A DNA stretch of 54,715 bases, filler included, from Asterionella formosa (Eukaryota), in NCBI GenBank assembly GCA_002256025.1. It is 5 parts of 5 records of this genome, joined end to end, with 100 filler letters (N's around TTAATTAATTAA, not from the genome) between each part and the next. Parts side by side here need not be neighbours in the genome. Positions count along the whole stretch, not along the records: positions 1 to 10,871 come from NKIB01009068.1; 4 more parts are not named here. The stretch is one strand, 5' to 3'. The notes under the pieces were generated by a model that was not told where the DNA came from, did no database searches, and saw only the letters and a program-made list of their open reading frames with translations. This document shows positions 820-54,599 of the stretch, in pieces (the first letter of the stretch is position 1; the number at the start of each line of letters is the position of its first letter). A program made the translations under genes and the position numbers.

Positions 820-3100
820 CTATGAAAAGGTTTGATATGACAAATATTAATTGGTTCAGTAAAATGCATAGTTTGTTGAAAAATTACTGTAGTACAATTA
901 GCATGCACTTGAATAATAGTATAACGACATTTCCTACAATCATGCAAAGTAAGCCTAGTAGTTTAATTATCCAGTAAGATAAAAATCATGTCTCCAACTT
1001 TGTTATCACAAGACCAACAACAGAGATTAGTACAACAAAGACTTTTTCAATTATCACTTGTCAATGCTGATGTATTTAATGTAAATCTGTAATCAAAGGA
1101 ATACTTAATATCATAACACGTGGGAAAACCAATGGCCCTGGTGAACTAGCTAGTATGCAATGTACTATGAATAGTAGCTCAAGCTGCATAGTAGGATGCA
1201 GTAGCAAAACATGTATCTACAATATTCTGAGCTTGAAATTTATTGATTGGAGGATGAGCCTTTAGGATTAGACAAACACTGCCCGTTACTGATGGATTGA
1301 TGTAAATATTCACAAAAAGAATGAGCTTGTGGATTCTTGACTGTAGTCGTGAGTGACATCATCTTTAATTCCATTCAACACTAAAATGTGTAGGAAAGAT
1401 ATACTGGTAAATGCACCCCCATTATCATGAATAAAACATTCTGGATGGGGATACCGGGCTAGGCAAAAATAATCATTTTCATTGCAATACATTTTGATGT
1501 TTAATTGTTGATACGTGAAATTTCTGCTAAATCGGTGACTGTGTCAACACAAGTTAGAGCACGAAATTCAATCGTTTGTGCAGCCACTGTTATCTTCCAT
1601 GCACCAATCAAATCCACTGCGACTTCTGACCATGGTAATAACAATGCATTCCTAGGTGAAAGTTCACCATAACCAGCACCAGGTAATTTTGTACATTGAC
1701 ACGCTTCACATGTGCTTATAGTAAGCTCCACTCGTGCTTTTTATGTGGGGTGAAAAAATATGTAGAAATTGTTGCATTTAGTCTTGTCATACCCAAACGA
1801 GCGAGCTAACATCTGATGATGCCCATTAATAATATGATCCAAAAGTGACGTAGGGATAGCAATATTACGCCAAGTATCCCCTGGATTCTTCACGAAACAT
1901 ATTAAATGAATATCATGAAATTGATAGTTGTTTGTTGATTGAGAATAAATTGTATATCCAGAAATTGTCTATAATGGATTAAATCATAATCTAAAGGATA
2001 TTGAATTTCTGCCAAAACCGGATGATTGAGAAAACAGGCAAGCAGAGGTTTATCATCTACGTCAATTGAGAAAGTGGAATTTGATGTTGAATTGAGCATT
2101 GCTTAGTGGTTAGCACACCCTTCTGCGGTGGTGGGCTCGATTCCTGCATTTCACAACTGTCTTTTTCATATAGTACCTAGGGTTCCGGGGTTCGGATGAC
2201 GAAAAAACAGGTCTCGTTGTACCGTATGGACGAATAAAACCGGTATTAATTGTGTCCATTGATTAGGGCCCAGGTGCAATTATTGGATAGCTTTGATGTA
2301 CTATAAAACTTAATTGACATTTTTTTGGAATTTGATGTTGATACTGAAGATTTCGACCCAAGATTATCCCCCAACAAAGACTCAAGCCTTGGGAGGCGAG
2401 AGATGGAATCTGCAATAGCATTATCAGTCACCTTCACAGCCATAGTGAAAAGTAGGATAATATTCTTCAATATAAAGTCTCTAGCGGAGAACACATTGAG
2501 TGTATAAAGTATTGCATATAAGATTACAATGTTTATTGTGAACATGAAGAATAGCACTTAATAGCATAGATCGAAATTTTTTGAAGAATTCAACCGCAGA
2601 TAGTAATTCTTTTGCATTAGCGGTGTAATTTTTCTGAGCAGCGGAAAGTTTGCGAGAATAATAAGCAACTAGCTAGGAGATCATTTTGCATTATCACTAA
2701 TCATAATTGATAATCAGATGCATTAAAAAATTATGAAAAGGAAAATTGTGATCTGGATAATGCATCAGTTAAAATGCATAGCCAGCACGTTTAATGAGGA
2801 TGGTTTGTATGAGAGGTGAACAAGAATAAATATTTCGATTAATAACCTTATTTAATTCACGAAAATCTGACACCCATCGGACAATACCGTCCGTTTTGGG
2901 AAACATAAAGTGGGAGATGCCCATTTAAAAGCACCACATCTCTGGAGAACACCAATATCACATATCCATTGTGACTCGGTTTTGAAAAACTATAAATGAA
3001 TATGGGTGACAGGATACACATGATGATGTCGGGGAATAGCGTCTGGTTATAATTCGAATTGTACTTGTGTATGAGGATAAACTTTTGATTTGACATCAAA
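820..3100 (-). pseudogene. Degenerate Ty3/Gypsy pol (RT N-terminus, RNase H, integrase)
   Basis: Minus-strand motifs in Gypsy order: RT start KWASPT..PKTDGIVRWVSDFRELNK (~2820-2930); RNase H YPDHNFPFH..ASDYQ and VAYYSRKLSAAQKNYT..KELLS (~2580-2760); integrase CEACQ, PWSEVAVDLIG, HDNGGAF; C-terminal PINICHIKPF (~825-855). Many frameshifts and stops. Confidence 0.9.
2091..2325 (+). mobile_element. tRNA-derived SINE-like insertion (235 bp) with 16-bp TSD
   Basis: TGGAATTTGATGTTGA occurs at 2075-2090 and 2326-2341. The head has an A-box-like TTGCTTAGTGG and a B-box-like GGCTCGATTCC with D, anticodon and T stems; the insert ends in a T-tract. Removing it restores the Gypsy pol frame. Confidence 0.75.
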
Positions 3101-5305
3101 TAATGTTTGATACTAGCTATTTAGACAATTTAGTTTGTAGATGCGACCGTTGAATTGTTGTCAAGTGCACTATATGCCTTATTTTTATAGAAGTTCTAAC
3201 AGGTATGCAATTTAATTTATAAGTTTAAATGATTTTAAAATTTATTTTAAATCATTCATCATCACTACTTTCTTTTTTATCATTTGGTGATTATATATTT
3301 TACCAATGCACCAGACAAAGGTTGGGGTGCACTGTTGGTACTTGGTGCTGTTGATGGCATTGGAGTTATAGGAGAATGAAGATGATTTGATTTTGCATTT
3401 GTTATTGCATTGATATGATATTTGAAGTTATCATTGAGTTCATCATTGCCTAAATGGGTTCAATGCTGGCATTAGAATTGGTTCTTTCGGCTGCCCTGCG
3501 GTTCAACATGGATGAACATGGATGCCATGATCAACATCATCATCATGTTTTGTTGCTGACGTTGTATCTTCTCAGTATCACTCCTCTTTTTAGTCTTCTG
3601 GAGGAAATGTGTGGAAACTGGAGTCAATATTTTGCAGAGATTGTTTGACACATGCCTATCTCTAATCCAGGTGGATACCATTGGTCGATGAAATCTTGCA
3701 CCAGCAGTGAAACTAGCATAATTCACAGCCGCTGCAGCTGAATTTGCTCCATTAGATTCTTAATAAGTCGCAGCTTTATTAGTTGAGGTTTCCTGACGAG
3801 GTTCATCTTTGTCTCCATTGTCCTCAGAAATGGCCATGAAGTCATCATCAATATCTATACCAAGGACAGTTGAATCAACCTCTCCACTTGCATCTGCTCT
3901 TGCTTCTATTTTTCGACATGTTTTTCCTACCTGACCTCAGGACCTCAGGAGGAAAAGTTGGGTCACTTGTTGGTCTTTTCACCATGTAAAGCTGAGAAAA
4001 CTCTCGCCGAATTGAAGTTCCAGTTTGATCCTTGGCTGGAAAATTTTAATTGTGTTCAGCAGCAACACATTACCATTTGTGAGATCAAATTGTCAAATGA
4101 CTCAAAAGAGAATCTAACAAGAATGACATAACCTCATTGAGTCGAAACTGTTGACCCCGACACTGTAGGTTGTGATGTTCCCTTAGAAAAACTGGTGGAA
4201 GAAGATTTGGTTGCTTGCAGTAATGCTATTGTGGCGTGAAGATTCATTGTCGTCTCCTGTTGAAGAAGACAGGGAGACACCAATATGAGAGACACCGGAA
4301 GCACCAAATCTGCTGTCGTTGTCACTGGCTGTGTTATCTCCATCCTCTTCATCCTTCTCCTTCTCTTCCTTCTCGTTTTCTTCTGATTCTGACTGTTGTG
4401 ACAGCGATGCTCATGCAACCTTGGAGAGTAAGGGAAAACCTCTCTGTCTGGTCTCCTTTGACCAGAAGAGGATGACAACATCATTGAAATCTAAACGAGA
4501 TGATGATAAAGCAATGTATTGAGGAGGTTGATATTTGTCAATATGCATACCTATTTTGGCAAGAGCAAGCCATTTCGAATATGAGCAAGCAAGTTTTGAA
4601 ATGTTCCGGGAAATGAAATGTAGTCATCCATGCATAGACATGTTTTTACATATTGCACTGTTATTTTAACTGTTTAAAAATTTGTGTTTGTGTTGACCCA
4701 ATTTTGGGGTTATGAGTACAACAATTTATGTATGATACACATGATATAATATATTTTTATTATTAGAGCGCGCTCGATATATAAAAATAGATTTTCGCTT
4801 TTATTGCCTTGTAACAGAATGTTGCTTACGTTTATTATACATTTGCGCAGGCAGATATTTTACGACTTGACCTACAAACAGTGATACCACGATTTATTAT
4901 TAAGCACAGCCCGAAACTTTATTTGAAAAGCAAATCTATGTATGTGTATATATATATTGGACATTTTAAAGTAAGGCTACATACACACAAACATATTCCG
5001 TCCATTGAAATGTGCCGGTACATAGAGTATTGGTTGACAATCTTGTGTCGTTTACTTTACTACATATACACATATCTAGATATGTATTATCCTGGGTAAC
5101 CTGTTACTGGTACTGGTACCTGGTACCGCTAATATGTTCATGGGTATATTCAGCTAATAACAATAGAGATGTCATGTACATGAGAAATTTCAATAGTTCA
5201 CCGGAATATGCGTTGAACGGCGACGAAGCACGATTGCCTCATGATGACCTTTCTCACCATTCGCGAAATGCCATCAAGAAACACACAAGAAGAAACGCCG
5301 ACACC

Positions 5306-6650: not shown

Positions 6651-9600
6651 GGGACTCATTCAGCCATCAGGGAAATTTGGGATTAAGATATTTTATTCAG
6701 TCGATGTATTTTTGGCTTTTGCAGTACAAGATGATAATTATAATGATGTGTGAAGATTATATGGCAGAGGTAAATGTCTATGATACTAGCTTCACTTCGG
6801 CTCTTTCCATGATTGTTCTAAGTAAAATCCTACTTCTTGACAACATTTTAGGCTTGAGCCAATCATTAGAAAGGTTTCTAGTCTGAAATACTGCCAAAAT
6901 TTGATGAAGTTGGTGTTAATAAGATGAATTGTGCTCAGACAGTATATTTTGGTAAATATAATGCTAAATATCATTATATGTTAATTATTTATGGCTGATC
7001 CCAACAGCACTAAAACTTCAAAATTGATGCACTTAACTCTTCAAAGCTTTATTTCCTTCAAATCTGGAAGAATCTTATTCACTAGGAATCAAGCTTTCCA
7101 TTGACAGAAAGTTTAACCCACTAAATATGAAAAAGATTAACTAGGAGAAGACATAAATAAAAAAATTTTCATGCTGATATCTGCTCCTGGTTTCTAGATG
7201 GTGCTGACAAATGGTTATTAGATATTTTGACAACAGGGCTTCATCATAAATGCACTTGAATCACTTTGAGTTTCTTGAAGCACAACCGATGGGTTGCATG
7301 TGAACAAAAGATTGCCAAAAATGTGGTCAATACAGCATTTGACAGTTTTGAGCATACCAATTTCAGAATGTCTGTTTTAGGCTGTTGATGCCAACTGGTG
7401 TCTGAAGGCTACTAGTAGATGTAGAAAGCTTTATTCTATGATAGCTCATAGTAATCTAGTGAGGAAATGAGATGCAAGCGAGTGGGGTGAAAGATCTTGA
7501 CTGGCAATTCCAGGGTAGTGCTGGAGTGCACTAATAGGTTGGAAGAAGCACCACTAATCGTAAGGTTGCTACATTTTATCCCATAGCTCGAGCTTGGTCA
7601 GTAGCAACCTTAAGGTTTCTGCATTCGAAATCCTAAGGAAAATTAATATTATGCCAAGGGTTGCCGAAATTCCCTGGAGCTGGGAATGTTTTGTACTACT
7701 AATTATGAATAACAATGATTCAGTTTGAAATATTTAAATCATTTCAAATGTGCGTGTACGAACATAGATACCTTTTCGAATTCGCTAAATAAACACATGT
7801 ACATTCTTCATCACTCAATGTATATATACCCTATACTCGTATGATCAACGATTATGTGACTACGACATGGCAGCTTGGCAAATATTTATTGATACTTTAA
7901 AATGAACATCACCAAAAAAGTAACATAACCGCCAATTCAACTACAGGCACCAGTAGTACGAGTATCTGGTACTCCCTCTGGGCGAAACAATTGCGTCAAT
8001 TCTTAAAATTTCTCTGGCGCCATTTTTACTCCTACTTTTTCTCTGGCTTAATTGCCTATTATGTGCCATGCGCTTAGTTCCAGATCACTGTATTTTAAAT
8101 ATGTACTAGTTCATTCAAAATTGGCAACTATGTTTTTCGATCTTCACTTATGATCATATCGAGCAAAATGCAGATGCATGAAGACCCATTTTTCTTCGAA
8201 CCATTTATTCTCTACGTAAATACGAAAAAGGAGCAGGAAATAACAGTAGAACAATGTTAACTTGCCGTCGATCAGCATGGAATGCGGAACTGCGAAAGTG
8301 GCGATGATGGGAAAGAAGAAAACGACGGTACCCATTATGATTATTTTGATGATTGGAACCATGATTTGTCCAGTGGTATGGTCCATATAAATGCAACAAT
8401 CGTAGAATGTACTCCCTCTGCCTGTTCAACTTTAGTTGCAACCAAACTTTGCGGCTTGGCTGGTGATCATGAAGCGCAAGCTCCAAAAAACCCCGACTAA
8501 CAGCTCGTAATATTTAAAAATTATTCCGAACATAATTTTGTATATAATAATTATTATTAAGTAACTTTTATAGTACGCTATTGTTAAAGAAATCGACAGC
8601 TTTTGAGATTGTGAAGTCACACTTGGCCCCCTAGCTAGAGGGCCTTCGACCTGCTTGTTGTATGCATCACCACCACCCCAAATCCAAAGGACTTTATAAA
8701 CAGAGCAGGTGGAGAATGAGGGAATCTTCCCTGCCACCTCGGAACAAGGTGAACTAGCCAACTAAGCTATTCCCCTATTTGTGAAAAAATACATGCTCTA
8801 AGTAGTCCAGAATGAGATGAACCTGACCTCGATTTTTTCGCGCGTTTTTCGTAGAATTGCGCCCTGATTGGAATGTTTGCTCTGGATCCCCTCCCCCTTT
8901 CGTTGACCCTTCGTTAGTCAATAGACATAAGTAGAAGGATATAACACCGGAACAGCGACACTACATCGCCGATTGCTTCTTTCGCAACCTCGAAGGGAGG
9001 CCGATGCCAGCCCGTCATAAATCCGGGTGAGCACAAAACGTTAACTACATTACCCGGTATTCGACGTCTGTAGAACGAAATGTTTTTTGCCCGGAAACGA
9101 ATGCTCCTTAGTTTATTTTGCTGAATCTCTTTGGTAGTAATTACCGATATGACACACACATATAGAGGTCAGTATGCTGGCCAACGAAAATCAATAGCCC
9201 GAAACGATACAAATGTGTCGCTATTTTGCGTTATACTCGCCTGAATATACTAATCTAACCGACGCACTTGTCGCCTGCATTGTCTCGCGTAGAGAATCCA
9301 TATTGCTTCTGCAGAGGGCTTCTTTTAACGACGTGGATCGAGCAGGCCGATTAAAAGAATTGTTGCAACTATAGTTGCACAGAGGAGGGGGTATATGAAA
9401 CAACATGTGCTGCCTCTATTCGTGTTATGTTTTGTATTCAGTTTCCTACAAAAATTTGAGTGGCCAGCCAATGTAAAACAGCATTTGGCAATATATACAT
9501 GTGCGCTATGAATATTTGTGTGTTAAATTGGCTTCGAATAGCTTATTTCGATACCAATACTTCGATTAGTGATTACAACTTAATACTCCTTGCATCTAAA

Positions 9601-17944: not shown

Positions 17945-20815
17945 CTAGACGCAAGTGGCGCAGCAGCCACATGTTACAGTACACGATGGCTCAATCAGAG
18001 CACCCAAAGCACATAGTTCGCTTGGAATGCTACCAGTGATCTGATTTGCCGACAAGTAAAACTCCCCCAACGAGGACCAACCTCCAAAGAAAGGGGAAAC
18101 TTGTCCCGTGAGGAGATTGCCCACCACATTCAGAAAGGATAAACTCGTCATGGTGGCCATTTCGGTGGGAAGACTTCCTGACAATGCATTTCCTTGTATG
18201 CGACACTCTACCAAGTTTACCAATGAACCCATGGACGTAGGTATAGGACCACTTAATCCAATGTTACCGGTAGAACTGTCCTTTTGTCGTTGCACGCTCA
18301 ACACTTGGAGATTCACCAAATTACCAAGGTTATTGGGTAGCGACCCAGATAATATGTTATCTTTCAGATCAAGATATTGAAGCAATACCAAATTCGTGAT
18401 TTCTGGAGGTATATTCCCTTGAAGTTGGTTGGCGTTCAGGTCCAAATCAACAAGGTTTTGGAGTTGTCCAAGCGATGAAGGAATTTCCCCAGTCAACATG
18501 TTTCCTAATAACAGAAGTCGAGCTAACAAACAAGTAAACTGGGTAAGATATAGCAGGGAAGCGTACACAACCCTTTTCAGTTCTGTCTCTGATGTGCAAC
18601 TTACTCAGTCCAGTAACTGCACCGATTTCTGTTGGGATTGTTCCAGTAAATCTGTTAAGCGACAGGTCTAAACTCCCCAAATTAACCAAGGCCGCAATGG
18701 TACTTGGAATTTGGCCTGTCAACTGATTGTCCTGCAAAACAAGCGATTGCAGAGCGGTCAAGGAAGCAATGCTATTTGGAATCTGCCCAGTTAAAGCATT
18801 TTGTCCCAAAACCAAATCTGTCAAGGCAACTAACGAACCAATATTTGTTGGAACTTTACCGGTCAAAGAGTTTCCCTGCAGCCATAAAGTATCTAATCCT
18901 GTCAAGCCGGTAATCGCATCATTTATCGAGCTAGTCCAGTTACAACTCTGAAGGCGAAGATCCAACAAGTTAGTCATACCATAGATAAATGGTGGAATCT
19001 CAGAATCGGTGAAGTTGTTAACACCAAGGCGGAGGACGATAAGATCCAAATTGGCAAAGCTATCGGGGATAGAACCCGTAAACGTGTTAAAGTCACCCAT
19101 GACTCCAACTGGAAATGAAAACAGAATTGTTAGTTTCTCGCGCAATGACCACTGCTTTGCTCCAATTCAAAATATTACTCACGCAAATTGGTAAGGTTTC
19201 CAATGCTATTTGGAATCTGCCCCGTAAAGCCATTTGCCGTCAAAATCAAATATTGCAAGTTTGTGGCACCTGCAAACTCGGATGGGATCAATCCTGTCAA
19301 TTTGTTGTTCTCCACGTCGAAGTATGTCAAACCTGCCATGTCACCCACTTCCGTGGGAATGGTGCCTGAGAATGAATTGCTCATCAATATCAAAGTTGCC
19401 AAATTGGGTAAAAGACCAAATTGTGTCGGCAATTTACCATTCAAAGCATTTCGCAAAGCTGAGAAACGAACCAAGCTTTGAGCACTGGCAACGTTACTTG
19501 TAAGGCCACCACTAAATTGATTATTGTCCAAAATCAGATCTGTGAGATTGGGCATGATCCACAAAGCATCAGGAATGGTACCCGTCAACACATTAGCGGA
19601 AACATCCAGCAGCGACATGGACGATAAAGTCCCAAACTCAATCGCACTCAAACTTCCCGAAAAAGAATTCCTATCCAGAAGGAGCTTTTCAAGTTTCGTC
19701 ATTGTTGCCAACGAGGAAGGAATTGTTCCATTCATCAAATTGCTCGAAAATGCAAGCAATGTCATGGTGCTCAATAGGGCTAAATCGGGAGGAAACGAAC
19801 CGGTAAGAGCATTATCTATCAGCTGAAGTGATTGCACAGCAAGATCCGACCCGCTAGATGCCGGATAGCAAGTGACACCAAACCACTGACATTCATCATT
19901 ATTCAACCAGTTAGTATCATTCTTCCATGGCGTACTTGTGGTGAAGTACAAAGTTGCCAAAGAATAGCGTTGGTGAAGACGCAGTAAATTCTCGGGGCTG
20001 TCATCCATTGCGTCCAACACCAGAGGGTCGTCGTTGACAAGCCACTGCAAGGCCTTTCCTTCTGGAGTCGTAGGATCAGTCAATGCCGACGGATTGCTTG
20101 ACATTCCAGACAAATGATCCGTGAAAGAAACTAACCGATCCACAGTTGGTGCTGGAATCGTTGTTGTGGTTGTCGGTGCATTGGTTGGCGTAGGAGTTAC
20201 AGTTGCAGCTGTTGGTTTGGTCGGCGGAGAGCTACTAGATGTAGGCGCTGACACCGGACCCGCCGTACTAGGCATGGGCGATACCAGAGCTGTTGGAGGG
20301 GCACCTGATTGTGCGCTATTGGTCGAATTGCCACCAAAGGAGCCGGTTCCGTACCCAACACCCAAAACAACAGCAATAACAAGCAAGAGTCCTGCAATCA
20401 AAGCGACATAGAGCTTGTTCCGACTCGTCCTGCTTTCCTCGTCATACTCATACTCAATGATTTCATCGATTGTGTCCTTGTCAACAGCAGATTCTTCCCG
20501 GGGCTTGTTGCTGGGAATCCCCAGAGGCTGCTTTTCGAGATCAATATCACCTGCTTCTTCCCCTTCATCCCCCTCTTTGTCAATAACGTTCGACTTCTCA
20601 TCTTGTTCGGATGCCTCACTTTCAGAATCGCTTTCGGAAGAATCTTCATCGGAATCATCGCCGGAATCAGTACAGCAAGATTCCGAGGCACCACTGGGTG
20701 TGACACTCGTCTCAGTCGTATACACTGAATCTGCTGGAGGCGGGTGGGTTGGTGGAGGTGGTGGGAGAGACTCCTCGTCCTCCCCATTCACATCATGTTT
20801 GCTAAAGGAGAACAT
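17945..20815 (-). CDS. Type II membrane leucine-rich-repeat protein without kinase; exons 20815-19183, 19108-18605, 18522-17945
   Basis: Acidic N-terminus, one TM, P/T-rich stalk, ALQWL/QRYSLATLY/ECQWFGVTC cap, many 24-aa LxLxxNxLTGxIP repeats, Cys-rich end. GT-AG introns 19109-19182 and 18523-18604 link three ORFs. Confidence 0.92.
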
Positions 20816-21840
20816 CTCTGTCTGGTTTAACTTGACCTATAATAATTCGTGACCACAGATTGGTCTAAAATTGCGTTCCCCCGAATGAAATCCTTGGTAA
20901 TCTGTGCCGTGTGTAGGAATAATTCTCGGTTAGGCAGCAGCTCCTCCAAGGACAAATATTTTGTGAAGATAGGGCGCCAGCCAACCGCTATGTTTAGAGC
21001 ATACTATAACGCACTATCTACCAGTAAAGAAACCTTTCCGTCTACTTGCTTTACTTCTACATGAATTCACTGGACTACCAGTCGTACGAAAGAAAATGTT
21101 TCCATGAAAGCCGATACAATCAAAATTGATCGTGTGTATCTAATGTCCTATTATCCACATGGCTGGAGTGTTTTGAATAATTCGTGAACATCATCGGAGT
21201 ACACTGCCTACCAGGGGTTGCGCGTTTGTCGCCGAAATGTAATTTTCATCATTGCTCCCATTGGCAGTCAAATAAGTAGACGTATCAACGGCCAGCGCGG
21301 GCGGAGGGCGATCCAGTATATCCCGGTTGATTCCAGAATTTCTACATCATTGGATTCCTCATGTATAAAGAATAGCATCTCGTCACACGAGGAAGGAGTT
21401 CAAGGTACCACCTAAAAACTGAGAGTCATACAAACTTTCAGTTTTGTACTGATAGTCATAACAAAACGGGGTAATCACACGGTTTGAGACGAATATTTGT
21501 AATATTATAAATATATATTAGACAAAGTCCTTCCTGTGCATATAAGGAACAGCATTGTTCGTTCTTGAACACTGCAATCTCGTACCAGTTCTTTAGTTAT
21601 AGTACCGGTAGTAAATTCAATTCAACCAATCAGAATATGTGTATTGACGTAGAAACTTACCCTGGAGTAGGCCAAAATTGGCTGTCGACGTTTTTGGTCC
21701 AAATCAGTTTTACCCCATTGAGCCTGCATGACTTTTTCAACACATAGGAGAAGCTGAAGCTATATAAATAATTAGCTTGTTTCAAGACTTTTCCGCATCA
21801 TTACTATGGCATGTTTGCGCCATTGCAATTAAGTTGTGCG

Positions 21841-33607: not shown

Positions 33608-35440
33608 ATGTCTTCAAAAAACCATAAAAAGGTTCATGGAAACAAGCGACATGTGGCAAATACTGCTGGTATGGAACAAAGAAGCAAGTACCAAAATGAG
33701 TTAACAAAGAAAAAGCGAATAGGCGATTATCCAAAGGAACCCAATCGGTGACAGGGAGTTAGTGGGGGTACTACCCCATCGTCGATGGGGACACCATCAG
33801 CTACACAGGATCCCCTAATTGATACTGAAAGCGATGATGACGTTTCTTTTTCAGTTGTTGATACAAGAAAAATGGCCCCTGTCGATGATACCATTATTAA
33901 CTCCCGGATGCAGATGGACGACATGGTACCAAATAATAAATGTTCTAATCGCACGGACCAACAAGTACATGAAAAACTGAGGGAAAAACATTTTGCACTT
34001 GCCAAAGGATATTATCAATTGGTCAATGAACTCACTCACTACAAAGGCCATAATTCGGTTCAAAACTCGTCCATACAAGGTTATCAAGACTCTTCAATTT
34101 CAGCAGCCTTATCAGAACGTCGTTCTCGCTTAGCTAAAATTGAACCATCAATTGTCACAAAGGTTGTGAGTTTTATTTTCAAGACCAAGAAGTTTTGCTG
34201 TGAACATGTAAGTTTGAGGTTATAGTTCGCGAATTGTAGGTACTGTAAAAAAGAATATCAATCTAATGTGCTTTTTTCTGGTCCCAAAAGAGAATCAAAC
34301 ATCCCGCCCTATCTGGTCCAAGTAGTATGAAAGGCATTTCCAATCACAAACAGGATTGGTTTGCCCAATGTTTACCTGCCTGACTCGGCTATACACAGTG
34401 AAACCGGAGTTAGGCAAAGAATTGGAGAGTGACCCAGGCAATTGAGCGTACCAACAAGGCATGTTTAGATTATATTAAATCAACATTTGGTGGCATGGGC
34501 AATAAAAAGTTGAGAGAATGTCAGAATGTATTGAATAATCAATTTAAAGGAATCTTAGGTAAGTTCTTGCAGGGCGGGAGATGCTCTGAAAGCATGATGT
34601 TTTGAGTTGGTGATTATATTCTTATCAAATATGTTTGAATTAAAAATGCTAACATAATTCATGACACACCAGCTGGTCTAACAGAATATAACTTTCAGAC
34701 TATGGATATTGATGACTTTATTAGGTGGGCGTTGACGCTTTATCGTTTTGCGCAGTCAAAGGACATTGACAGGGGAAGCCAGGCCAAGAATTCCAAGTCT
34801 GGCGTGATGTTCTTGCTCCAGTTTATTTTATAGGCAGGACAAGCCGTGGAGAACCATTTTTAACAGGAGACAAATCTGGTGTGACCAAATTTCAACTAAG
34901 TCTTCGGGCACAATGTGAATTGCAATCACGTTTTGTTGGTTCGCTGATCAATGCCAGTACAGAAGCATTTTGCTTCTTGGTGCTGAAAGGAAACTTCCGA
35001 TTGCAACAAAAATATTTGGGTTTCAATCCAGATACCCATGAAATTTCAGAGAACGAGCGATATTCGACATTCTACTGATTTTGTCGACATTGGTGGGAAA
35101 CCAGTCCACTTATCAAAAAAAGTTTGAGGGAAGAAAGTTCAGTTTCAAGTGGTCTCACTGATCAATGGACTGATGATTTACTCGGTTATTATATGGAAAT
35201 CTACACTGGAATTCACAAAAAAATCGATCTGAATATGGAAGGAATCCTAGTGGAATTGTTACTTCCACAACAAATCTCATCTACCCACACTCATACTTCT
35301 CATTTCCCAATGTAAGTGAAGAAAATATGCATCAATATGTCGAACCACTTCAACCAAATGTTCGTGAGAAGAATATTGATTACAATGAACTCATTAATCA
35401 ACGGGACATTGATGACGACGTTGATTTTGAATGGATCTAA
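33608..35440 (+). pseudogene. Decayed, probably spliced accessory ORF upstream of the Plavaka-like transposase
   Basis: ORFs 33509 and 33785 are in one frame split by a TGA at 33749; GTAAGT donor-like sites near 34208 and 34559; later segment INASTEAFCFLVLKGN; the 3' part recurs at 45231-46270. Confidence 0.5.
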
Positions 35441-35688
35441 TAAAATCCAATGCATGCTTAGTACCGTAGCTACATAATAAATATAGTTAGTGTGAGACTT
35501 CTACAATGCACAAAACATATCATAGATGTTAGGAAAACAATAAGGTATACCTCCATTTTTACTACTATGGTGGAGTGATAATTTCACGACTCTGTATTGT
35601 CCAGCACAGTATGATCGGAGTGATGCTTAATTTATTATTAATAATTCATTTTCATTCTATCCTGTTCATATCCTGACTTTGTCATCAT

Positions 35689-38600
35689 TTGAAATTCGCA
35701 ATGTCTTTGCGGACATTGCAATGGTGTTATCTGTGTAACTACAAATTTCGGAAGAACAAATCCCCATCTGAGTCTCACAATCGAAATTGTAGCAACCGTG
35801 TTTTCTATGCAAATGGTCACTGTCGACATTGCATGCAAGAACTTCGAGGTCCTGGAATACATAATGAAACTATGTATTGCGGTAGTGCATCAAATCATTC
35901 AGGGAAAGAAGTTAATGGCAGTGTAACTGCTGCAGCATTTAGGGAGAGTAGACAACAAGAAGAGATTATGTGTCCTTTCCTTGAATCAAGTGGCCACAAT
36001 CATCCATTTCATGACGACAGCGACGATTCAGTATATAACAACATTCAGTCATAACAAGACGAACAATTGAGACTAAAAAATCTCCAAGGATAGAATTCAG
36101 AGACCATGCAATATTCAGATTTCCAAGATCACATCGGCTTTCTCCCTGAAAATGCAATGGAAATTCCCCTTCCTCCTCAATTTCAACTTCCAAGTAAACA
36201 TTCCCTAAACATGCATCCAATCGAATTAGAACTCATGTTATTCCTTAACGAGAGTTACCTTCCACCAGTTTACTTTGATCATCTAATGAAATGGCTGTTC
36301 ATGGCTAAAGCAATGAAATATTTTGATGGAAGGTATCAAGCTCCATCCTACCAGACTTTGAAAAAACGCATGGATATTTCATTTCCACCAACATTAGCTG
36401 GTGGTCAACTGCTGACCAAACAAATACAGATTGATAACAATTCAATCATGATCATCCCACGCACACTCCATGATTTCGAACCAAGACAGCTCATGGCAGC
36501 ATTGCCAGTGATGGGATGGTTCACCTATTGATAAACAAATGAAACATTCCGAGCATCCGTTTTTGTTGACAATGTTAAACTTAATGTTAGAAGGAAGGAA
36601 AAAAGTTGATGGATGGCAATTGGTATCTCTTTTGCCAGACATTGAAGGGGGGGTATCTCTTTTGCCAGACATTGAAGTCAGTGATCTGGAGAAACAAATG
36701 AATAATAAGTTATCTGGTGACGACTTGTCCTTACTATATCGACTCAAATTATACCATTCTGTTACAGGATTTCTATTGTCGTTTTTCGAAGAGCGATCCA
36801 AACACTTCATACGACATTTGGGTTGATGGTCTTGGTATGACAAAAGTATATTTACAGATTGGAATGATCATTGGTGATACAGAAGAGCACAACAAAATTT
36901 GTAGTTTCAGGGGTGGTAATGGATTATATCGACGATATGTTTGTCGTGATAACCTGTTTTCAACTGAAGATGCTGATAGTCCCGATATTGGATGTGAACG
37001 TCGTAAAATGTCAGATGTTAAAAAGCTTTTAAAAAAATTTCTTGACAGAAATGCAAATCCCGATGGAAAATCACCATGTATCCCACCTGAGTATTGTGTC
37101 TCCCAATCTAATGGCAAATACGCAACAGCAAACGAGTTGTGCCGTGTTATATCGCATAATCCTATTATGACTGCACTAGTAAATCAATTTTTTGGTGGTG
37201 ACTTAGAAGGATTATTTGGTGCAACTCCATTTGAGGTTCTTCATCAATTACTACTTGGAATATTTAAGTTCTCACATTTTGGAATCATTGTACAATTATC
37301 GGACTATCCCTGAAGAATGGACATGTTTTTTTAAAGAAAGAAAATCACCAGATATTCCAGAGAACATCTCTGATCAGAAAAGTATCACTGAAACAACAGA
37401 CACTGCTTTTCTTGATCAAGAGCAACCGAAGAAACGGGCAAAAACCAAAAAGGACACGCGCACCAATTACCAAAAATATCTACACTGGCAAAATCAAGAC
37501 CCAACACTTGTACCAGCACCAGGAATGTATTTTCGAAACTATACTTCGAACAAAGTGCTTTTGGAAAGGCAAAGCGATTGTGATATTCCAAAATTGTCAT
37601 ACAGATCTGGGATGACACCTTTGTCAAAAATGTCAGGGCAAGAAATTCCCGGATTATGTCTGTCAACTATTTTTTCAATAAGTGGAATGATGGGCGGGTT
37701 CAGAGAACATGCACCTAGAAAAGGATTTCACATTGCTGTTATGGTTATGTCTATCTATCAATGACACTTTATTCATACCGCAGTATACATCAACATATTT
37801 TGATATTTTGGAGGAAAGGGTTAAGAGATTTATGTTAGTTACTAAGATTATGATTGGTCCCCAACGGGAAATGATATCTCAAATTGGCTTACAAATGGTA
37901 AAATTTCATGGAATGAAACATTGCCCTCATCTGATTAGGAAGTTCGGATCTCCTTTTAATTTCTTTGGTGGATATTTGGAGTCTTTTTTGAAAGACAAAT
38001 TGAAACGAGCGACCCAGTAAGCGTGTCAATGGACAATTACATCGATTAAAGCATGACATTTTAACAAACAAGGTCATATGAAACAAGGCAGTTTTCCTTG
38101 GCACGAAAAATTGTTTTTGCAAGTGATTCATTACATACAGAAAACAAACAAAAGAAGATGAGTAAAGTATTACATATGAATGTAACTGAGGTTATTTCAA
38201 CAGAAATTGATTTCGAAGGAATGATTCAGGATACAAGGATGTTGCCTAGTATTTCGCCTGATAATTTGGGAATATCGCCTGCTACCAAGATCCATTCACC
38301 ATCCTTTCTTGTTAAAGTTCAATTCTCTGCTTCATCATCAAATGGTCTATGGACTATAGCAGGTGTCCCTAATAAGATTGGGCATGTATCAAGGAGTAAG
38401 GATGCACCCTATTTGTGGTCTCAATTGGTTCATCCTGATTTAACAAAGGGGGCCAACTACGTGAAGAGCATTGCGAATTCAGCAATAGAAATAGCAAGAA
38501 TAAAAAGTCTTGAAGATAGGGTTGGGCCTGTTTCCATTGTAAGGATCGACTTTTATTATCATGTTAAAATTGAAAGTAACGTTCCCGGCCAAACTACTAT

Positions 38601-44277: not shown

Positions 44278-45075
44278 TCAAACAGGAAGTAATGGCCAGG
44301 TTTCTTGCAAATGCAGAGTAATTTTGCATAGGAGCATCACTGTGACTATTCCAAGAATCATTATCACTATTGGATGATTGATAGCAAACAGAATTGTAAT
44401 GAGACCTCCTGCTTTAGCAATCTCAATTGCCACCATGATGTAGGCATTCATAAACATGATCCGAAGTGCTCTAAGACCATTTTCTAGAACACCAGCATTA
44501 CAAGAATTCTTAGCCACAGCAAACAGAATTGTAGCGAAACCTCCTGCTTTAGCAATTGCCACTGTGAAGTTGTAATTCCCAAGTGCTACACAACCATAGT
44601 ATTGCACATAAACATTCAATGGATAATTCTTCATAGCAGACAGAATCACAGTGAAACCTCCTGCTGCAATAATCGACACTTTGGTGTTGTCATTCACAGT
44701 CAAGTTACAAAGTGCTGCACAACCATAGTGCTGCAAAGTAGCATTGGAGGAATGATAAACCATAGCAGACAGAATCGTAGTGATACCTCCTGCTTCAGGA
44801 ATCGTCACCTGGTTGTTGTCATTAATAGCCAGGTTCCAAAGTACAGCACAACCATAGTGCTGCAAAGTAGCATTGAAGGAAGGAATACTTATCCATGGCA
44901 GACAGAATTGTTGTGATACCTCTTTTGTCAGCAATCATCACCTTTTTATTTCATTATCCTCAGGCGATTTTGCAAGCCCCATGAGACCTTCTTCTTGAAT
45001 GTCCGTATCCTTTCCATTCTTGTCCATCTTTGAAAGAATCTCAGCAATCGTGGAGGCGATATTCGCCATGTTTGT
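44278..45075 (-). pseudogene. Armadillo-repeat (aardvark-like) protein, frameshifted
   Basis: ~43-aa repeats LQHYGCA.L.NL..ND.N.V.I..AGG.T.ILSAM; an upstream repeat (TDIQEEGLMGL) is separated by stops or frameshifts. Confidence 0.8.
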
Positions 45076-45230
45076 TTTGTTGAGATTGGCTGAGTTGTGT
45101 TGGCTTCTGATGGTTTGCGGTTTTTGTTTGCATCAACAGGTGTTCTAATTTCATTTAATAAGTCATTATCAAATGCATTATGTCCAAAGTAAAGTGTAGT
45201 CGGCTTTATTGTCTTTGAGAGCCTCTGCAA

Positions 45231-46270
45231 TTGTGAGATTCAGATGGGGATTTGTTCTTCCGAAATTTGTACATACACAGATAACAGCATTGCAATCATG
45301 TCAGCAAATAAATTGCAAATTTTAAATGATTACCAAGTCAGAATATGAAAAGGATAGAATGAAAATGAATTAATAATTATAAATTCGGCATCAATCCAAA
45401 CATGCTGTGCTGGACAATACAGAGTCATGAAATTATCACTCCACCATAGTTGTACAAATGGAGGTATACCGCTACATATAGTACAGGCAGCACTAATAGT
45501 AGTATAGAGCAGCGTCAATCATTTCTTAACATCTATGATATGGTTTGCATTGTAGAAGTCTCACACTAACTATATTTATTATGTAACTAGTACTGAGTAT
45601 GCATTGGATTCTATTAATTACATTCAAAATCAACTTCTTCATCAATGTCCAGTTGATTAGTAAAGCGGTCATTGTAATCAATATTCTTCTCAAGAACATT
45701 TGGTTGAAGTGGTTCAACATTTTGATGCATATCCTCTTCACTTACATTGGGAAATGAGAAGTATGAGTGTGGGTAGATGATATTTGTTGTGGAAGTAGCA
45801 ATTCCACTAGGATTCCTGCCTTCCATATTCAGATCGATTCTTTTGTGAAAGTCCAGCGTAGATTTCCTTACAAAAACCGAGTAAATCAATATCATCAGTC
45901 CATTGATCAGTGAGACCATTTGAAACTGAACTTTCTTCCCTCACACTTTTTTGATAAGTGGTTTCCCACCAATGTCAACAAAATCAGTAGAATGACGAAT
46001 ATCGCCTCGTTCTCTGACCCAAATATTTTTGTTGCAATCGGAATTTTCCTTTCAGCACCAAGAAGCAAAAGGCTTTTGTACTGGCATTGATCAGCAAACC
46101 AACAAAACGAGATTGCAATTCACACTGTGCCCAAAGACGTAGTTGAAATTTGGTCATACCAGATTTGTCTCCTGTTAAAAATGGTTCTCCACGGCTTGTC
46201 CTGCCTATACAATACACTGGAGCAAGAACATCACGCCAGACTTGGTATCCTTAGCTTCCCCTGTCAATGT
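45231..46270 (-). mobile_element. Internal fragment of a second copy of the Plavaka-like element
   Basis: Reverse complement is colinear with ~34763-35781 (TKFQL.L.AQCELQSRFVG; GAAGAACAAATCCCCATCTGA). Confidence 0.9.
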
Positions 46271-47435: not shown

Positions 47436-50400
47436 TCAAAGAACTGATTTGTCAGGTCGTACGAGCGTGGCGACCGCACGATGACTGGCATTGATAAATT
47501 GATATCCCATCATAGTCATGCAATGTGCACGTAGAGTAGAATACGGGAGTGCCTTGGTAAAATGGTCATCTAAATTGTGAGCAGACGAGACCCAGGTAAA
47601 ATGGACTCTGCCATGACGGACATTTTCTTGCAAAGCCTGCGGTTTTGTAGCAATATGACGAACATTGCATGTTAATTTACTCGCATGCGCAATGATTTGT
47701 GCAGCAGAATTGTCTTCTCCAATGGAGATAGCATCATGATAAGGAATTGACATATCCTCCATGTAAATGCGTAGCCACAAAACATGTTTAGATAAGGTGG
47801 TGGCTGCATCAAGTTCTGCTTCAGTAGTATTGTATGCTGTTGTACTTTGTTTGCGGCAGAATGTAATTACTGCAGTATCATTAATCATAATGACACCACC
47901 AGAATAGGCTAACCGGTCAAATATGGCACCTCCAAAGTTATCATCCGCATAGCCTTTGGTGGTAGGTGCTATTCCAAGAAGAGGTTTGCTATATTAGAAA
48001 AATGTTTCTGTTCTTGAAGCGTGTATGATAATGAGGCAGATACTGATGAAGTGGAGATCAGACCAGTCATAATACGGGACATATGCCAGAAAGTTTGATC
48101 TTTGTCAAATTGGTGAGCTTCAACGCTGATGACAGTAGGTTCACCCAGCCACGGAGCGGCTTGACTGATATGTGAAACCGAAACCGTGGAACCCCGAGAT
48201 ACTTTTCTGTTGAATGCAAGTGGAATATCCGGATATTGATGGAGATATTTCGCAATTTGTAGTAATGCATCAAAATCTAATGATCCAGGAGCATTTTGAT
48301 ATTGAGCCAGCCTTTGTACAGCTGTTTGTATATCAAGCCTGGTCCATTGGCATAGATGTTGAAATTGCCCCAACAACGTCCTATATTCAAAACCATAAAG
48401 TTGAATCGCTTTATGAAGTTCACTGGGAGAATATGGTATACAACTATCGAGTGCTTCTTCATGTTGTACGCCACTGAGCATAGGAATCATGTTTGCTCTT
48501 GAGATAATTTGTTTATCCCAGGACAAACCATAAACATATTGAAGAACTTCATGAACCCTATGAGTTTGGTCAATTGTCATACAATTGGAACTAAACAGGA
48601 ATCTGAGACCAAAAAATGAGAGACTTGCCCCATATTGTGTATCTTCCAGTGAGATTCAAGAGTAGTAACAATATGGTTGTATGTATCCAGTGACGAAGTT
48701 CCGACCAAAATATCATCAGTAGCTCTGGCTAAGATGACATGACATTGATTAATTGTACCTTGGTAGATGCATTGATCTGCGCGATTTTTGATTAGGCCCA
48801 GTTGTCCACAGAGCAATTTATCAACATGTTCTCCCCATTCTCGAGAAGCATCTTTGCGCCCTTGGACATGAGCAGACATTTCCACACGCAAGCTTTTCCA
48901 AGATTGTTTGGCCAGTTTATATTGAACTGGGAATCTGGTTTGATACCAGAGCATATATTCAGGAAAAACTTTGAGCCAGATACGGTTCCCTGCTGCATTA
49001 GGTGGAGCAGGAGTATTTTGAAAGGCATTGCTAATATCAAGATGATAGAAATTGTAATGCATATAAGTGCCAATGGCCAAAAAAACCTTGATCGACATAG
49101 CGAGTATGGTGGGAGCAAAAGATTCAGTATCATCCACTCCTTTAATTTGATAGCTGCCATTCACACATAGCCGAACTATCATCCACTCCTTTAATTGGCT
49201 GAATTCACCACATGTTTGAGAACCAAAACAGCCGGAAGCAGAGTTGCATCATGGGGTGGAAGGCCAGGAGCGCCAAAGGTCCCAATGCTATGACAGTTAT
49301 CTAGATGATGAAAGAGCGCCGCGGTCCATTCTCCTCGAAATGGTCCTTTCATTGCTTCATGAAATGATCGTGGACAGAGTGTATTCGGATGAGAAGTGAT
49401 GGAAGAGACAGTAAATCCTGACCGAAGCATACTGATATCCCCCGCACTGAAGAAAATGTATCTTTCCGGTCATGGTTTGTGTGTGTTTTCTTCACTGACA
49501 GTAGAGTGAGGAGGTTGGTGAGCATACCAGGAACGAATCGTGGATCATGAGGATCACTTAAAGAAAGACGCCCATGTGTAGCAAGGACATATCCATCAAG
49601 TATCTCCTCAGCATCATTGATAGTGCGTACATCATTTCCGTTAATCTGTAACAGTACTCTACCCTTTAATATTTGTGTAGGGCCTTTTGTCATACAACGC
49701 CCGAAAGCACTATTGGGTTCGATCCCAATTATCTCACATTGTGCTAGGTCAGCATGGTAATGGAGAAGTAAGCCATGTGCCTCATCTGGTAATAGATCAG
49801 AAATTTCTGTTATGGACATGTCGTGATTTAGCCATGGTGAACAACTTGGCATAAGATCAGAGATTGCTGTTTTCAAAGCGGCTGTGTGTTGAAATGGAAA
49901 CATCAACAGCTGAGTGATTCAGGAGAGCTTTTGCTACTGGAGACCGATCACTAGGAAGTCTGTGAACACAAAGTTCATCAACAACAGCTTGATGAGCATA
50001 TTGAACCCTGCCGGAATCCCCAATATATTGGTAGATATGCGCAGTCCCTTGGAAACCAACAAAAGTTCCAAGAAGTTTATTAGAATCAGGACGATGCCGA
50101 CTGGCGCATCGATTCTTGACATGGAGTGGAGAGCCAAAAATAAAAGCCATTGATAAATTAGGTGCATTTTTGTGGAACACTTCATGAGGGGTGCGACCAT
50201 TATGGGCATCACTAGGCCGAACATTAAGAAGAAAAGTGGCATATGTGACAGCAAAACACCAGAGTGAGGGATCCATTTGTGCTCCATATAAGAGACATTG
50301 AGCCGTGAGTCTAATAAATTTAATGGAGACCTCAGCTTTTCCGTTTTGCGAGGATGAGTACGGGTCAGTGGGCTCCACGGAGATGTGCAGCAGAGACAAC

Positions 50401-51550: not shown

Positions 51551-52836
51551 CAGCTGTATTGATTTGTCAGCCAATCTTGGCCACATTTTAGGCTTAAGCT
51601 AATACATACATGGCGATCGTTAGTTTGAAATGTGGCCAAGATTGGCTGAAAGATGAAGAAGTTGAAAATCGCGAAGTATCAACAATAAGTTTTTTCGGAG
51701 TTTTAGCGCTGGTATGTTTCATCGTAGAAACGTCAACTAGAAGTAGCTTCATCACGATGAAGCTAGACAAAACTACTGGTACTCATTAATACGAAGGATT
51801 GTCACGACGATGGGCTTGATTTGTTCAAGCGACAATTACTCTACTACCAACTGGGATGTTTTGCTCCGCTTTTCCACAGGGCTGTTGACCTCAAAGAACG
51901 CTAACATCGTGCCGTGAGTGATACCATTTTACAGAAACAATAATCGAAGAGTTGTCTGTATTTGAATGCAGCTAGTGGAAACGACAATCAACAGGTTGAT
52001 GCAAGCACCTCAACACTCACTTCATCCAACAACCAACTGTCCCTATTTTTGTATAGACCAACTAAACCATTTACTCTAACAGTCATACATAGTCTCCAAT
52101 GCCTCCAAATAGACAGGCCTGTTGCCTTTAAATGTTGTTTTTAGATCCGTAGTGGTCTTAAAAGTTACCGCCATGGTCGTTTAAAAGTCACTACCGGTAG
52201 CTTTGTCGTGTTAATTGATTTTTCGGGGTGTCAAATCAATTTTGACAGATGATTACTATAAACTAGTTTTAAAAAGTACTATAGGGTTTTAGTGACAAGC
52301 CTCTTCAAAAAGTTCGGGGAAACTAGCAAAACAAGTTTTAGCTTTAACAACAAACCCGGAAAACTGCATTGTTGCATGTGATAGAATTTCCATTTTTGGT
52401 TCCGTGTTGGCATCAACAGTAATTCCGACACGCCGATCGTGAAGGATATTTGTATAGCCCGGTAAGCCAACCACATCGCTTACCGGTTTATGGTTTGTTA
52501 TCCCATCCTTCAAATATTTCTACATCATCAGTAAGTAGACGAAAATGATTCTATGCACTCAATCACTATCTTCGTTCTCTCCTCCATCCATCCGTCCATC
52601 CCTTCGATTGACCGAGCGCTCTTACACAATGGCCATCGCCTCTGCAAGCGACCCAACGTTCGAGCAACTTCCCGGGGACTTTGCCTGCGAACGGAACAAC
52701 TCGCTTGTGCCTCCCCGCAAAAGGGGGCTTGGCCGCGCAAGTCGATGCCAGTATCAGCAGCAGTCTGGGCGACTTGGGGACTGGCACGGGAAGCTAGCCA
52801 GCCTTTTCTCTGAAAGTTCCCCAGCTCCTGTCCTTC

Positions 52837-53790
52837 TTGGCCAATGAGCGGACTCGTATGGCCTTGTGCAACCTCATGGAAGAAGCTCTGACTAGGACGC
52901 GTACTCCGGCAGTCGACGAAGAAGCGCCCACGAAAGAACAAACCATGCAGCTGTGCGTCAAGCTGCGGGAGGACGAATCCAACGACAAGACGGCGGAAGT
53001 TCTGGCTACGGCCTTGGCCTCTCTTGTTCTCAAGTCATCACCCGAGACGGGCATTCACCCCTCCGAAGTGCCCTATCGCCAACGAGTCTTCGGTACAAAC
53101 TCGTTGGCGGAACGCAAGCTGGACAGCTTATGCAAGCTCTGCTATGATGCTTTGTTGATCATACTGGGCATTATCAGCATTGTTGCTGTAACGACCTACG
53201 GACTAGATCCAGTAGGGAAATGTGGAGCCTTTTGGGTTGAAGGCGCTGCCATTCTCATGTCAGTGTGCATTTTCGTCCTCGTCACAGAAGGTATCGAATA
53301 TGCCAAACAATCTGCATTTTTGACCTCGACCAACTCTCTACATGATACAAAGAACACCAAGGTCGTGATGCTCATGTCAGTATCATTGATGATGACATTG
53401 TCGTCGGAGATATTGTGTCGGTCAATTCTCATAACTTGGCCAGCATTCCAGCTGATTGCGTCTTACTTGGACCCATGGCAGATTTGAAAGTGGATGAAAG
53501 TACCTTGACGGGGGAGAGTAAGCTCATTGCTAAACGTCCTGGAGATGTAGTTTTGAGTGGCACATCGACAATGCAAGGAAGTGGCAAAATGATTGTCATT
53601 GCAGTTGGGCCAGACTCAGTCAGTTGCAAAATTCGGGCCCGCGTTAATAAAAGCAAAGAATCCGAGGACGATGATCTGGAAGGAGATTATGTCACTAGTC
53701 CCCCTTTTGTCAAGATGGATACAAGTGCAAAAATCATTGGATTGATTGGGACGGTTTGTGCCATTTGTGCCTTTGCGGCAACCACGGTAA
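52837..53790 (+). pseudogene. Truncated P2B (PMCA-type) Ca2+-ATPase N-terminal fragment
   Basis: RQRVFGTN, WVEGAAIL, DIVVGDIV, IPADC, VDESTLTGES, VLSGT, GSGKMIVIAVG; frameshift near 53370; ends after TM3 with no DKTGT. Confidence 0.85.
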
Positions 53791-54599
53791 CAGCTGAATG
53801 TTGTCGTCGTTTCGTCATCTCGGTATATATAGTAGTAGTACAGACAAAAGTCAACAAGCCTTTCATCCCTTTTTGGTTGTGCTCGGATTCTGCCATTGAT
53901 GCTGTTGCAAGATTTCTATTCTTTGTTTTGATGTTGGTTTTTTCAGAGATGATTAATTTGCTTTGTCGACTATGCATCGGATGCAAGGAAATTCCAATTG
54001 ATATATCAGAGGGAGAGGAGAAATTATTTGAGAGTTTTAACCAAGAACACATCAAAAAAAAGAGAGTTCCAAACTGGAAGTTGCTTTTTTTTGTCTTGAT
54101 TGTTGCAGCATTCTTACTCTGGCATGGAACAAACTACGGACCCAATGGCGATGAGCATGTGGGCATTTGTATTTATTTTCATGTACTGGGTGTGATTGTG
54201 ATTGTCATAAATGTACTCAAGTTATACTTTGGTCGACCCAGGCCTCACGCATATGACAGGTCGCGTTATAATTTGAATACCAAGAAATGTGAAGAAACTG
54301 ATCCTCGAGAATTACAGGATGCACTCATGTCTTATCCGTCGGGCCACGCTACGATCGTCACAGCCACCAGTCTTCTTTTAATTTTTGAGCTGAACCGAAT
54401 ACCACCAAGTGGGCCATTTCTTTGGTTGATTTGCTGTGCCTTTGTTGTTGTTGTTTCTTGTGTGAGTTTCTATATTGCATGGAGCAGAGTCAAAGATAGA
54501 TGGCATCATCCATCCGACATCCTTGCTGGTATTTTGCTTTCCATTTGCTTGGTCCCTATTCTTTATTGGATTGAGTTAAAACGATTGTCCATTTGGTGA
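53790..54599 (+). CDS. PAP2-family lipid phosphate phosphatase domain, in frame with the ATPase fragment (ORF 53415-54599)
   Basis: C1 KLYFGRPRP, C2 PSGH, C3 SRVKDRWHHPSD all present, with multiple TM helices. Confidence 0.85.
   Translation, partial: TAECCRRFVISVYIVVVQTKVNKPFIPFWLCSDSAIDAVARFLFFVLMLVFSEMINLLCRLCIGCKEIPIDISEGEEKLFESFNQEHIKKKRVPNWKLLFFVLIVAAFLLWHGTNYGPNGDEHVGICIYFHVLGVIVIVINVLKLYFGRPRPHAYDRSRYNLNTKKCEETDPRELQDALMSYPSGHATIVTATSLLLIFELNRIPPSGPFLWLICCAFVVVVSCVSFYIAWSRVKDRWHHPSDILAGILLSICLVPILYWIELKRLSIW

Follow-up and report, generated by a model that had tools for sequence, protein, structure and literature searches.

The 235-bp insert at positions 2091-2325 of the window, the 54,715-nucleotide stretch of DNA analysed here from the freshwater araphid diatom Asterionella formosa, is a member of a real and well-defined SINE family (family 1). 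Very probably it is a SINE2-type, tRNA-derived SINE that was copied by target-primed reverse transcription with enzymes supplied by a non-LTR retrotransposon of the same genome, an APE-RT-RNase H element that would recognise a shared 3' end of about 55 nt. An earlier note on this DNA had read the insert as a LINE-mobilised SINE, and this reading is borne out by the dispersion of the family, the long individual target-site duplications (TSDs), the 5'-truncated copies with intact 3' ends, the tRNA-Ala head, the co-terminal LINEs with TSDs of similar length and the empty host site. The parts of the element and the other features of the window are listed in Table 1.

Table 1. Features of the window
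Feature	Position	Strand	Evidence or remark
Decayed pol of the Gypsy-type host, its RT and RNase H lying upstream of the insertion	1998-3112	-	matched by tblastn to the single copy L100, in pieces that fall in different frames
Left TSD copy, 16 bp	2075-2090	+	exact repeat; homologous site single in 14/14 other Gypsy copies
tRNA-Ala(AGC)-derived head, judged from sequence	2091-2155	+	best of tRNA sequences compared; anticodon arm shortened and replaced; 5' end decayed in window copy
Central stem-loop common to families 1 and 2, with internal T5 at 2162-2166	2156-2211	+	consensus alignment; 12-row pairing
Family-1-specific middle body	2212-2265	+	unalignable to family 2; ahead of the tail, resembles LINE L317 only in patches
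LINE-derived 3' tail, judged from sequence	2266-2319	+	matches 3' end of APE-RT-RNase H LINEs
Short T tail, T6	2320-2325	+	sequence
Right TSD copy	2326-2341	+	exact repeat
Full-length family-2 copy	8553-8775	-	84% to family-2 consensus
LRR protein	19175-20836	-
ARM-repeat protein	44278-44934	-
Copia-type RT fragment	48577-49248	-
P-type ATPase piece and PAP2 domain, one frame	52798-54599	+

Insertion site and Gypsy host

The window consists of five contigs with N spacers between them, and the SINE insertion lies on the first of these (G000:C9068). Two plastid proteins encoded in this assembly match proteins labelled Asterionella formosa without a single difference, which supports A. formosa or a close relative as the host. 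The 16-mer TGGAATTTGATGTTGA was found exactly on both sides of the insert and at no third place in the window, as the earlier note had described. That note had also called the insertion into the Gypsy pol a clean one, and this was confirmed in two ways. The phase of the pol peptides is unchanged from one flank of the insert to the other, and in 14 of the 14 other Gypsy copies fetched (out of 40 scored and 301 candidates in the genome) the flanks are contiguous and the SINE sequence is absent. The concern that all Gypsy copies might carry the segment is thereby removed. The host coordinates given in Table 1 are the matched extent only, which is less than the whole element. The host copy shares about 80% identity with its relatives. 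Besides the SINE, which is oriented antisense to it, several stops and frameshifts break its pol. The order of domains in the host family, as seen in copy L100, is protease-RT-RNase H.

Some details of the window were recorded in addition. A perfect TSD flanking a SINE copy that has diverged by 11% is mildly odd. At its 5' end the insert starts with six bases (2091-2096) that differ from the family 5' end and repeat a hexamer of the flank just upstream of the TSD (2065-2070), which possibly reflects a locally templated junction or chance. An inverted repeat of about 1 kb (34783-35781 and 45230-46255, 87-98% alike) lies on two different contigs of the window.

Copies, TSDs and age of the family

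With the window insert as query 527 candidates were found, of which 40 were scored; these matches are located on 40 different contigs with unrelated flanks, and the best other copy was 86% identical. A cleaner copy as query gave 745 candidates. A search with a 27-nt tail motif, allowing at most 3 mismatches, gave 261 matches as compared to 0 for the control, a number that includes truncated copies and some assembly duplicates, and 76 unique copies were examined. In a first set TSDs were detected in 33/42 unique full copies and in 0/159 mismatched flank pairs. In a larger set 44/60 full copies had a TSD of 10-23 bp, with a median of 18 bp that counts junction microhomology, i.e. chance overlap with head and tail. 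At the threshold used no TSD was found for 16/60 full and 13/16 truncated copies. The 5' end was missing in 16 of the 76 unique 3'-complete copies, three of which had a TSD. Family-1 copies other than that of the window have T-rich tails that vary. The genome search that the earlier note had proposed thus recovered dispersed copies with distinct TSDs, and the alternative of a single-copy segment fails for a family that is multicopy with independent TSDs.

Family 1 is short (235 nt, less than 1 kb), interspersed and non-tandem, and it is not an RNA pseudogene since the copies have an extra body and share diagnostic changes. On all three SINEBase criteria, as worded in main-text passages of that source, the family was found to be a SINE. 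Diagnostic changes split it into subfamily A (33 copies) and subfamily B (11 copies, one of them metagenomic), leaving 2 older copies and 16 without assignment. The copy in the window resembles subfamily B, from whose consensus it differs by 26 substitutions, 4 of them within the first 8 nt. The median identity to the consensus was 93% among the best-scoring copies, a value biased upward because copies were chosen by similarity. CpG sites were changed in 14.4% as compared to 3.8% elsewhere (33 copies), i.e. about four times faster, as would be expected for methylated DNA. Both SINE families described here look old and are probably inactive.

Where labelled, the sequencing runs containing the element were from algal and freshwater samples. 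A metagenome scan yielded four contigs, with full-length copies at 82-83% (L242 and L243), a partial copy (L244) and a head only (L241); a spread beyond the host is not implied by these contigs. The 75-nt head on L241 (561-635, 96%) stands alone with unrelated sequence on both sides, and this contig, labelled marine metagenome, is possibly chimeric. A tRNA-Asn gene is preceded, at a distance of about 100 nt, by a 3'-truncated family-1 copy (L045:1267-1397).

The tRNA-like head

By sequence comparison, the source of the head is tRNA-Ala(AGC). When the head was compared with tRNAs from 29 fetched loci, which represent part of the tRNA set of the genome, the best match was the nuclear tRNA-Ala(AGC) with a score of 63.5, followed by a score of 53. 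Identical pairs with this tRNA numbered 47/62 for the family-1 consensus (64% of 73 columns), 45/63 for the window copy (60% of 75 columns) and 52/63 for the family-2 head (71%). The acceptor stem and the T arm are kept, including the G3-U70 pair, the alanine identity element, while about 10 nt of the tRNA anticodon arm are lost and a short hairpin with a variable loop is found instead. In families 1 and 2 as well as in the window copy, the head reaches the SINEBase bar of at least 60% tRNA identity over at least 60 nt. Family 1 begins with GGGGAATGG, unlike the window copy.

The tRNA-like parts described in the earlier note were all located in the window copy, namely the D-stem (2101-2103/2112-2114), the CACC/GGTG hairpin (2116-2130), the T arm (2131-2147), an A-box-like motif (2100-2109) and a B-box-like motif (2134-2144), but what had been called the anticodon arm is not tRNA sequence. 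The tRNA model check that had been proposed gave a mixed result. ARAGORN detected no tRNA in the window, nor in 30/30 loci, and Rfam gave no tRNA match on the window copy. On the cleaner copy L008, however, the Rfam tRNA model RF00005 scored 26.2 bits (E 0.0018), which is below the cut-off of 29 bits. The family-1A and family-2 consensuses fold as full cloverleaves with a long helix directly after, and the minimum-energy fold of subfamily B is not a cloverleaf. As compared to tRNA-Ala, the T stem of family 2 has a double change that preserves the pair, and the replaced anticodon arm is still able to form a hairpin.

Body, central helix and a sister family

Behind the head, family 1 has a body of 170 nt that starts with the central stem-loop. 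In this helix 97% of the cells were paired across 12 distinct rows, with double changes at 2/16 pairs. The covariation score exceeded that of 500/500 shuffles, and the count of double-change pairs was matched by 228/500; with related rows and pairs chosen by hand, conservation of the helix by covariation is suggestive only. The whole 235-bp insert folded no better than shuffles (z +1.19).

A second family (family 2) was traced from a diverged element beside L005 and gave 491 candidates. Its consensus is 216 nt long, and TSDs were detected in 17/31 full copies. Families 1 and 2 share the head, the central stem-loop of about 57 nt and the terminal motif, but differ in the middle, and the T5 run of family 1 is absent from family 2. 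No TSD was found around the family-2 copy in the window. At L280/L316 (G000:C10055 near 1917-1934) the terminal motif and a family-2-like tail (z 11.7) follow other upstream sequence, and this may be a third family or another LINE end. Hammerhead- and HDV-like motifs seen by eye in the body were rejected as a ribozyme, as the core is incomplete and three copies gave no Rfam ribozyme match. A possible pseudoknot was seen by eye at nt 119-155 of the consensus.

A 3' tail shared with a probable partner LINE

According to the alignments, the tail of the SINE is derived from a co-terminal APE-RT-RNase H LINE, the domains of which were read via homologues. The tail of the window copy was identical to LINE L314 in 40/52 positions (z 10.7) and to LINE L317 in 42/62 positions (z 6.8), in both cases above all 200 shuffles. 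When the last approximately 55 nt of the family-1 consensus were compared with nine LINE tails, z was 8.1-14.6 in six of them, 4.8 and 3.0 in two, and 0.7 in L326, the tail of which breaks off after 11 shared nt. L260 and L283 had been located via the terminal motif, so that part of their tail score is built in; L317, L319, L320 and L327 were located by other routes. A long variant of family 2 matched LINEs L324/L325 in 79/101 nt (z 17-21.5) and reached further upstream. The comparison with host LINE tails suggested in the earlier note was therefore positive (z 8-15 in 6/9 tails). The 3' T-tract that it had pointed out is present as T6, but the informative 3' feature is the LINE-derived tail instead.

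An exact search with the terminal motif gave 67 places as compared to 0 for the control. Among the 57 matches examined, including a few assembly duplicates, 32 lead to a SINE head and 25 do not. Most of these 25 are 3' fragments of the SINE, and L260 and L283 run into a common coding region, which had 8 matches (72-83% to L260) and lies after an ORF with RNase H-like motifs. In the genome the protein of the partner LINE was matched 107 times, and most of these matches contain stops. The full-length copy L317 (G000:C5148:56013-64470, minus strand) spans 8,458 bp between 14-bp repeats with 1 mismatch, and was aligned to the 1,736-aa protein P0001 over residues 42-1735. It is nested in a Gypsy element and was missed by Pfam RT and APE searches. 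L314 is a 5'-truncated LINE copy of 766 bp between 19-bp repeats, also with 1 mismatch. Both copies end within about 10-20 nt of the shared motif, like the SINE. No TSD was found for the LINE copies L315, L327 and L319, L320 had only weak candidates of 10-11 bp, and among the copies fetched there was no intact one of this lineage.

Neither the pieces of the partner LINE nor P0001 gave a Pfam match to RT, APE or RNase H. Among 12 long homologues of the LINE protein, Exo_endo_phos was found in 3, RVT_1 in 2 (below cut-off) and RNase_H in 3 (one above cut-off), and the RNase H of the homologues covers the region matching L315. Conserved acidic residues and an RT match with an E of 5e-6 were also noted for the partner LINE. 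The PDB profile match to RNase H was weak (E 0.046), and a PDB search with a single LINE ORF gave none. The top Atlas match was a eukaryotic cluster, in which the one member with a known phylum is from Bacillariophyta. The Ambal clade consists of LINEs from diatoms in which APE, RT and RNase H are encoded by a long ORF2, and the layout of the partner LINE presumably resembles that of this clade.

Distant relatives of the partner LINE protein (27%) with identical scores and long open frames were seen on G000:C12643, C13713 and C15224, and these are possibly a younger RNase H LINE family. The RVT_1 candidates numbered 224, of which 74 were left unscored, and PF14529 was found in 0/42 candidates. 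Twenty further RT/APE loci were considered as a second LINE and rejected, being Gypsy pieces, host genes and telomerase instead. The host telomerase reverse transcriptase has an open frame of 1,058 aa (L191:4333-7506, minus strand).

Mobilisation and alternative explanations

In the proposed mechanism, the SINE would be transcribed by Pol III from its A and B boxes and the LINE protein would bind the LINE-like 3' end of the SINE RNA. The protein would then nick the target and prime reverse transcription, and a second nick about 14-19 nt away would give rise to the TSD. The U-rich end of the RNA may pair with the nicked target and thus help priming, and the copies may later have been silenced by CpG methylation. 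TSDs started with T in 49/64 cases, whereas overlap with the tail would account for about 52% (p 6e-5); this excess fits pairing of a U-rich RNA end with the primer. No T excess was detected upstream of the TSD at positions -8 to -12 (0.22-0.34 vs background 0.31).

The lack of a T excess at this distance, near position -10, also speaks against a different partner, i.e. mobilisation of the same SINE by a young APE+RT LINE family (L075-L088) or by an RTE-type element for which no particular tail is required, with the tail as a relic. The young family, which includes L162-L190, has long open frames and near-identical copies, and RTE partners typically go with SINEs that have a T tail and a TSD starting with T (PMC6007223). 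However, the 3' end of the young LINE carries an A tail and does not match family 1 significantly (12 nt at best, E 0.46), and the SINE copies are old, like the copies of the RNase H LINE, which are 72-83% identical to each other. We rejected the young LINE as a partner on the absence of 3' homology, and consider mobilisation by either of these elements very improbable. Telomere-like CCCTAA repeats were seen downstream of L176, a member of the young family. It is even harder to credit that the copies are a set of tRNA retropseudogenes, a non-autonomous deletion derivative of a LINE or a MITE. The head does score below the tRNA cut-off and the 3' end is LINE sequence, but the head is followed by the 170-nt body, all copies share changes not seen in the tRNA gene, the 5' end comes from a tRNA rather than a LINE, no terminal inverted repeat is listed for the locus, and the TSDs of the family are long and variable. 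The modular anatomy and the TSD lengths refute this reading.

The transcription step is where the SINE reading meets a puzzle. In family 1 the head is followed after 7 nt by a T5 run, and a run of T5 or more is kept in 52/62 copies. In 22/22 listed nuclear tRNA entries (two loci overlap) T4-T6 is found within 14 nt of the end, and simple Pol III transcription should therefore stop at the T5 run of the SINE, so that full-length copies need read-through or another source of RNA. Full-length RNA could be made by read-through of T5, or by RNase P excision at the tRNA-like head from longer Pol II transcripts, with the central helix shielding the 3' side of the head from RNase Z; we assume here that the two enzymes would behave in this way at a tRNA-like SINE head. 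The position of the T runs, the full cloverleaves followed by a long helix, the pair-preserving change in the T stem of family 2 and the hairpin that replaces the anticodon arm are consistent with such a variant. Nevertheless, we regard it as rather unlikely, as the A and B boxes are well kept, leaky termination at T5 would suffice, family 2 has no T5 run, subfamily B does not give a cloverleaf as its minimum-energy fold and the covariation of the helix comes down to two hand-chosen pairs among related sequences. Slightly more doubtful still is the broader proposal of a diatom SINE superfamily (tRNA-Ala cloverleaf, conserved central helix and exchangeable LINE tails) that would be the first described partner of Ambal-type LINEs, and in which structure-dependent read-through or RNase P processing would have let family 1 multiply into the hundreds in the face of a Pol III terminator directly behind its head. 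Contigs from the RNA libraries X11, X16 and X19 were found on the SINE, between its ends; such contigs cannot show strand, start or level and were not counted as evidence of expression. The profile of X11 resembles the DNA run X2, and X19 shares its sample with the best DNA holder.

Relation to known SINEs

As compared to SINE2 elements with a LINE-derived 3' end, in main-text passages of PMC3531059, family 1 is alike in its order of head, body and tail, its length of 235 nt (the median SINE in SINEBase has 236), its tRNA head, its LINE 3' region and its more than 100 copies. By description, not by sequence, it also resembles the RTE-related (Au-like) SINEs in the T-rich tail, the T-starting TSD and the 3' end common with a partner LINE. 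The RTE-related SINEs show an upstream T stretch in the relevant passages of PMC6007223, whereas in family 1 there is no such stretch at about 10 nt before the TSD, and its partner has RNase H and a length of 8.5 kb.

The statement in the earlier note that diatom SINEs are poorly described agrees with main-text passages of three diatom genome papers, and SINEs are said in such passages to be missing from most unicellular eukaryotes. For Phaeodactylum tricornutum 13 putative SINE copies with 1,454 bp are given (PMC5859163), and annotation counts of SINEs are found for C. cryptica (PMC7466962), Pleurosigma (PMC12803021) and S. costatum, and in a summary (PMC8147415). These putative SINEs carry the same class label as family 1, but in the main-text passages of the papers they are pipeline counts without analysis of head, TSD or partner. 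The Ambal clade is named in Repbase tables, and LINE/Ambal is reported in Pleurosigma, in the corresponding parts of these sources. The literature covered, which excludes Repbase Reports and most subscription journals, yielded no paper that describes a SINE family from a diatom or a SINE partnered with Ambal. A SINE with a LINE tail is familiar in animals and plants and little described in diatoms, and its mechanism is textbook.

Family 1 thus provides a well-defined diatom SINE family with its source tRNA, TSDs, a sister family and a partner LINE. Through this family, SINE mobilisation is linked to a lineage of long LINEs with RNase H, which standard Pfam RT searches miss, and both the SINE and the RNase H LINE may be under-annotated in diatom genomes. 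Presence or absence of individual SINE copies could serve as population markers.
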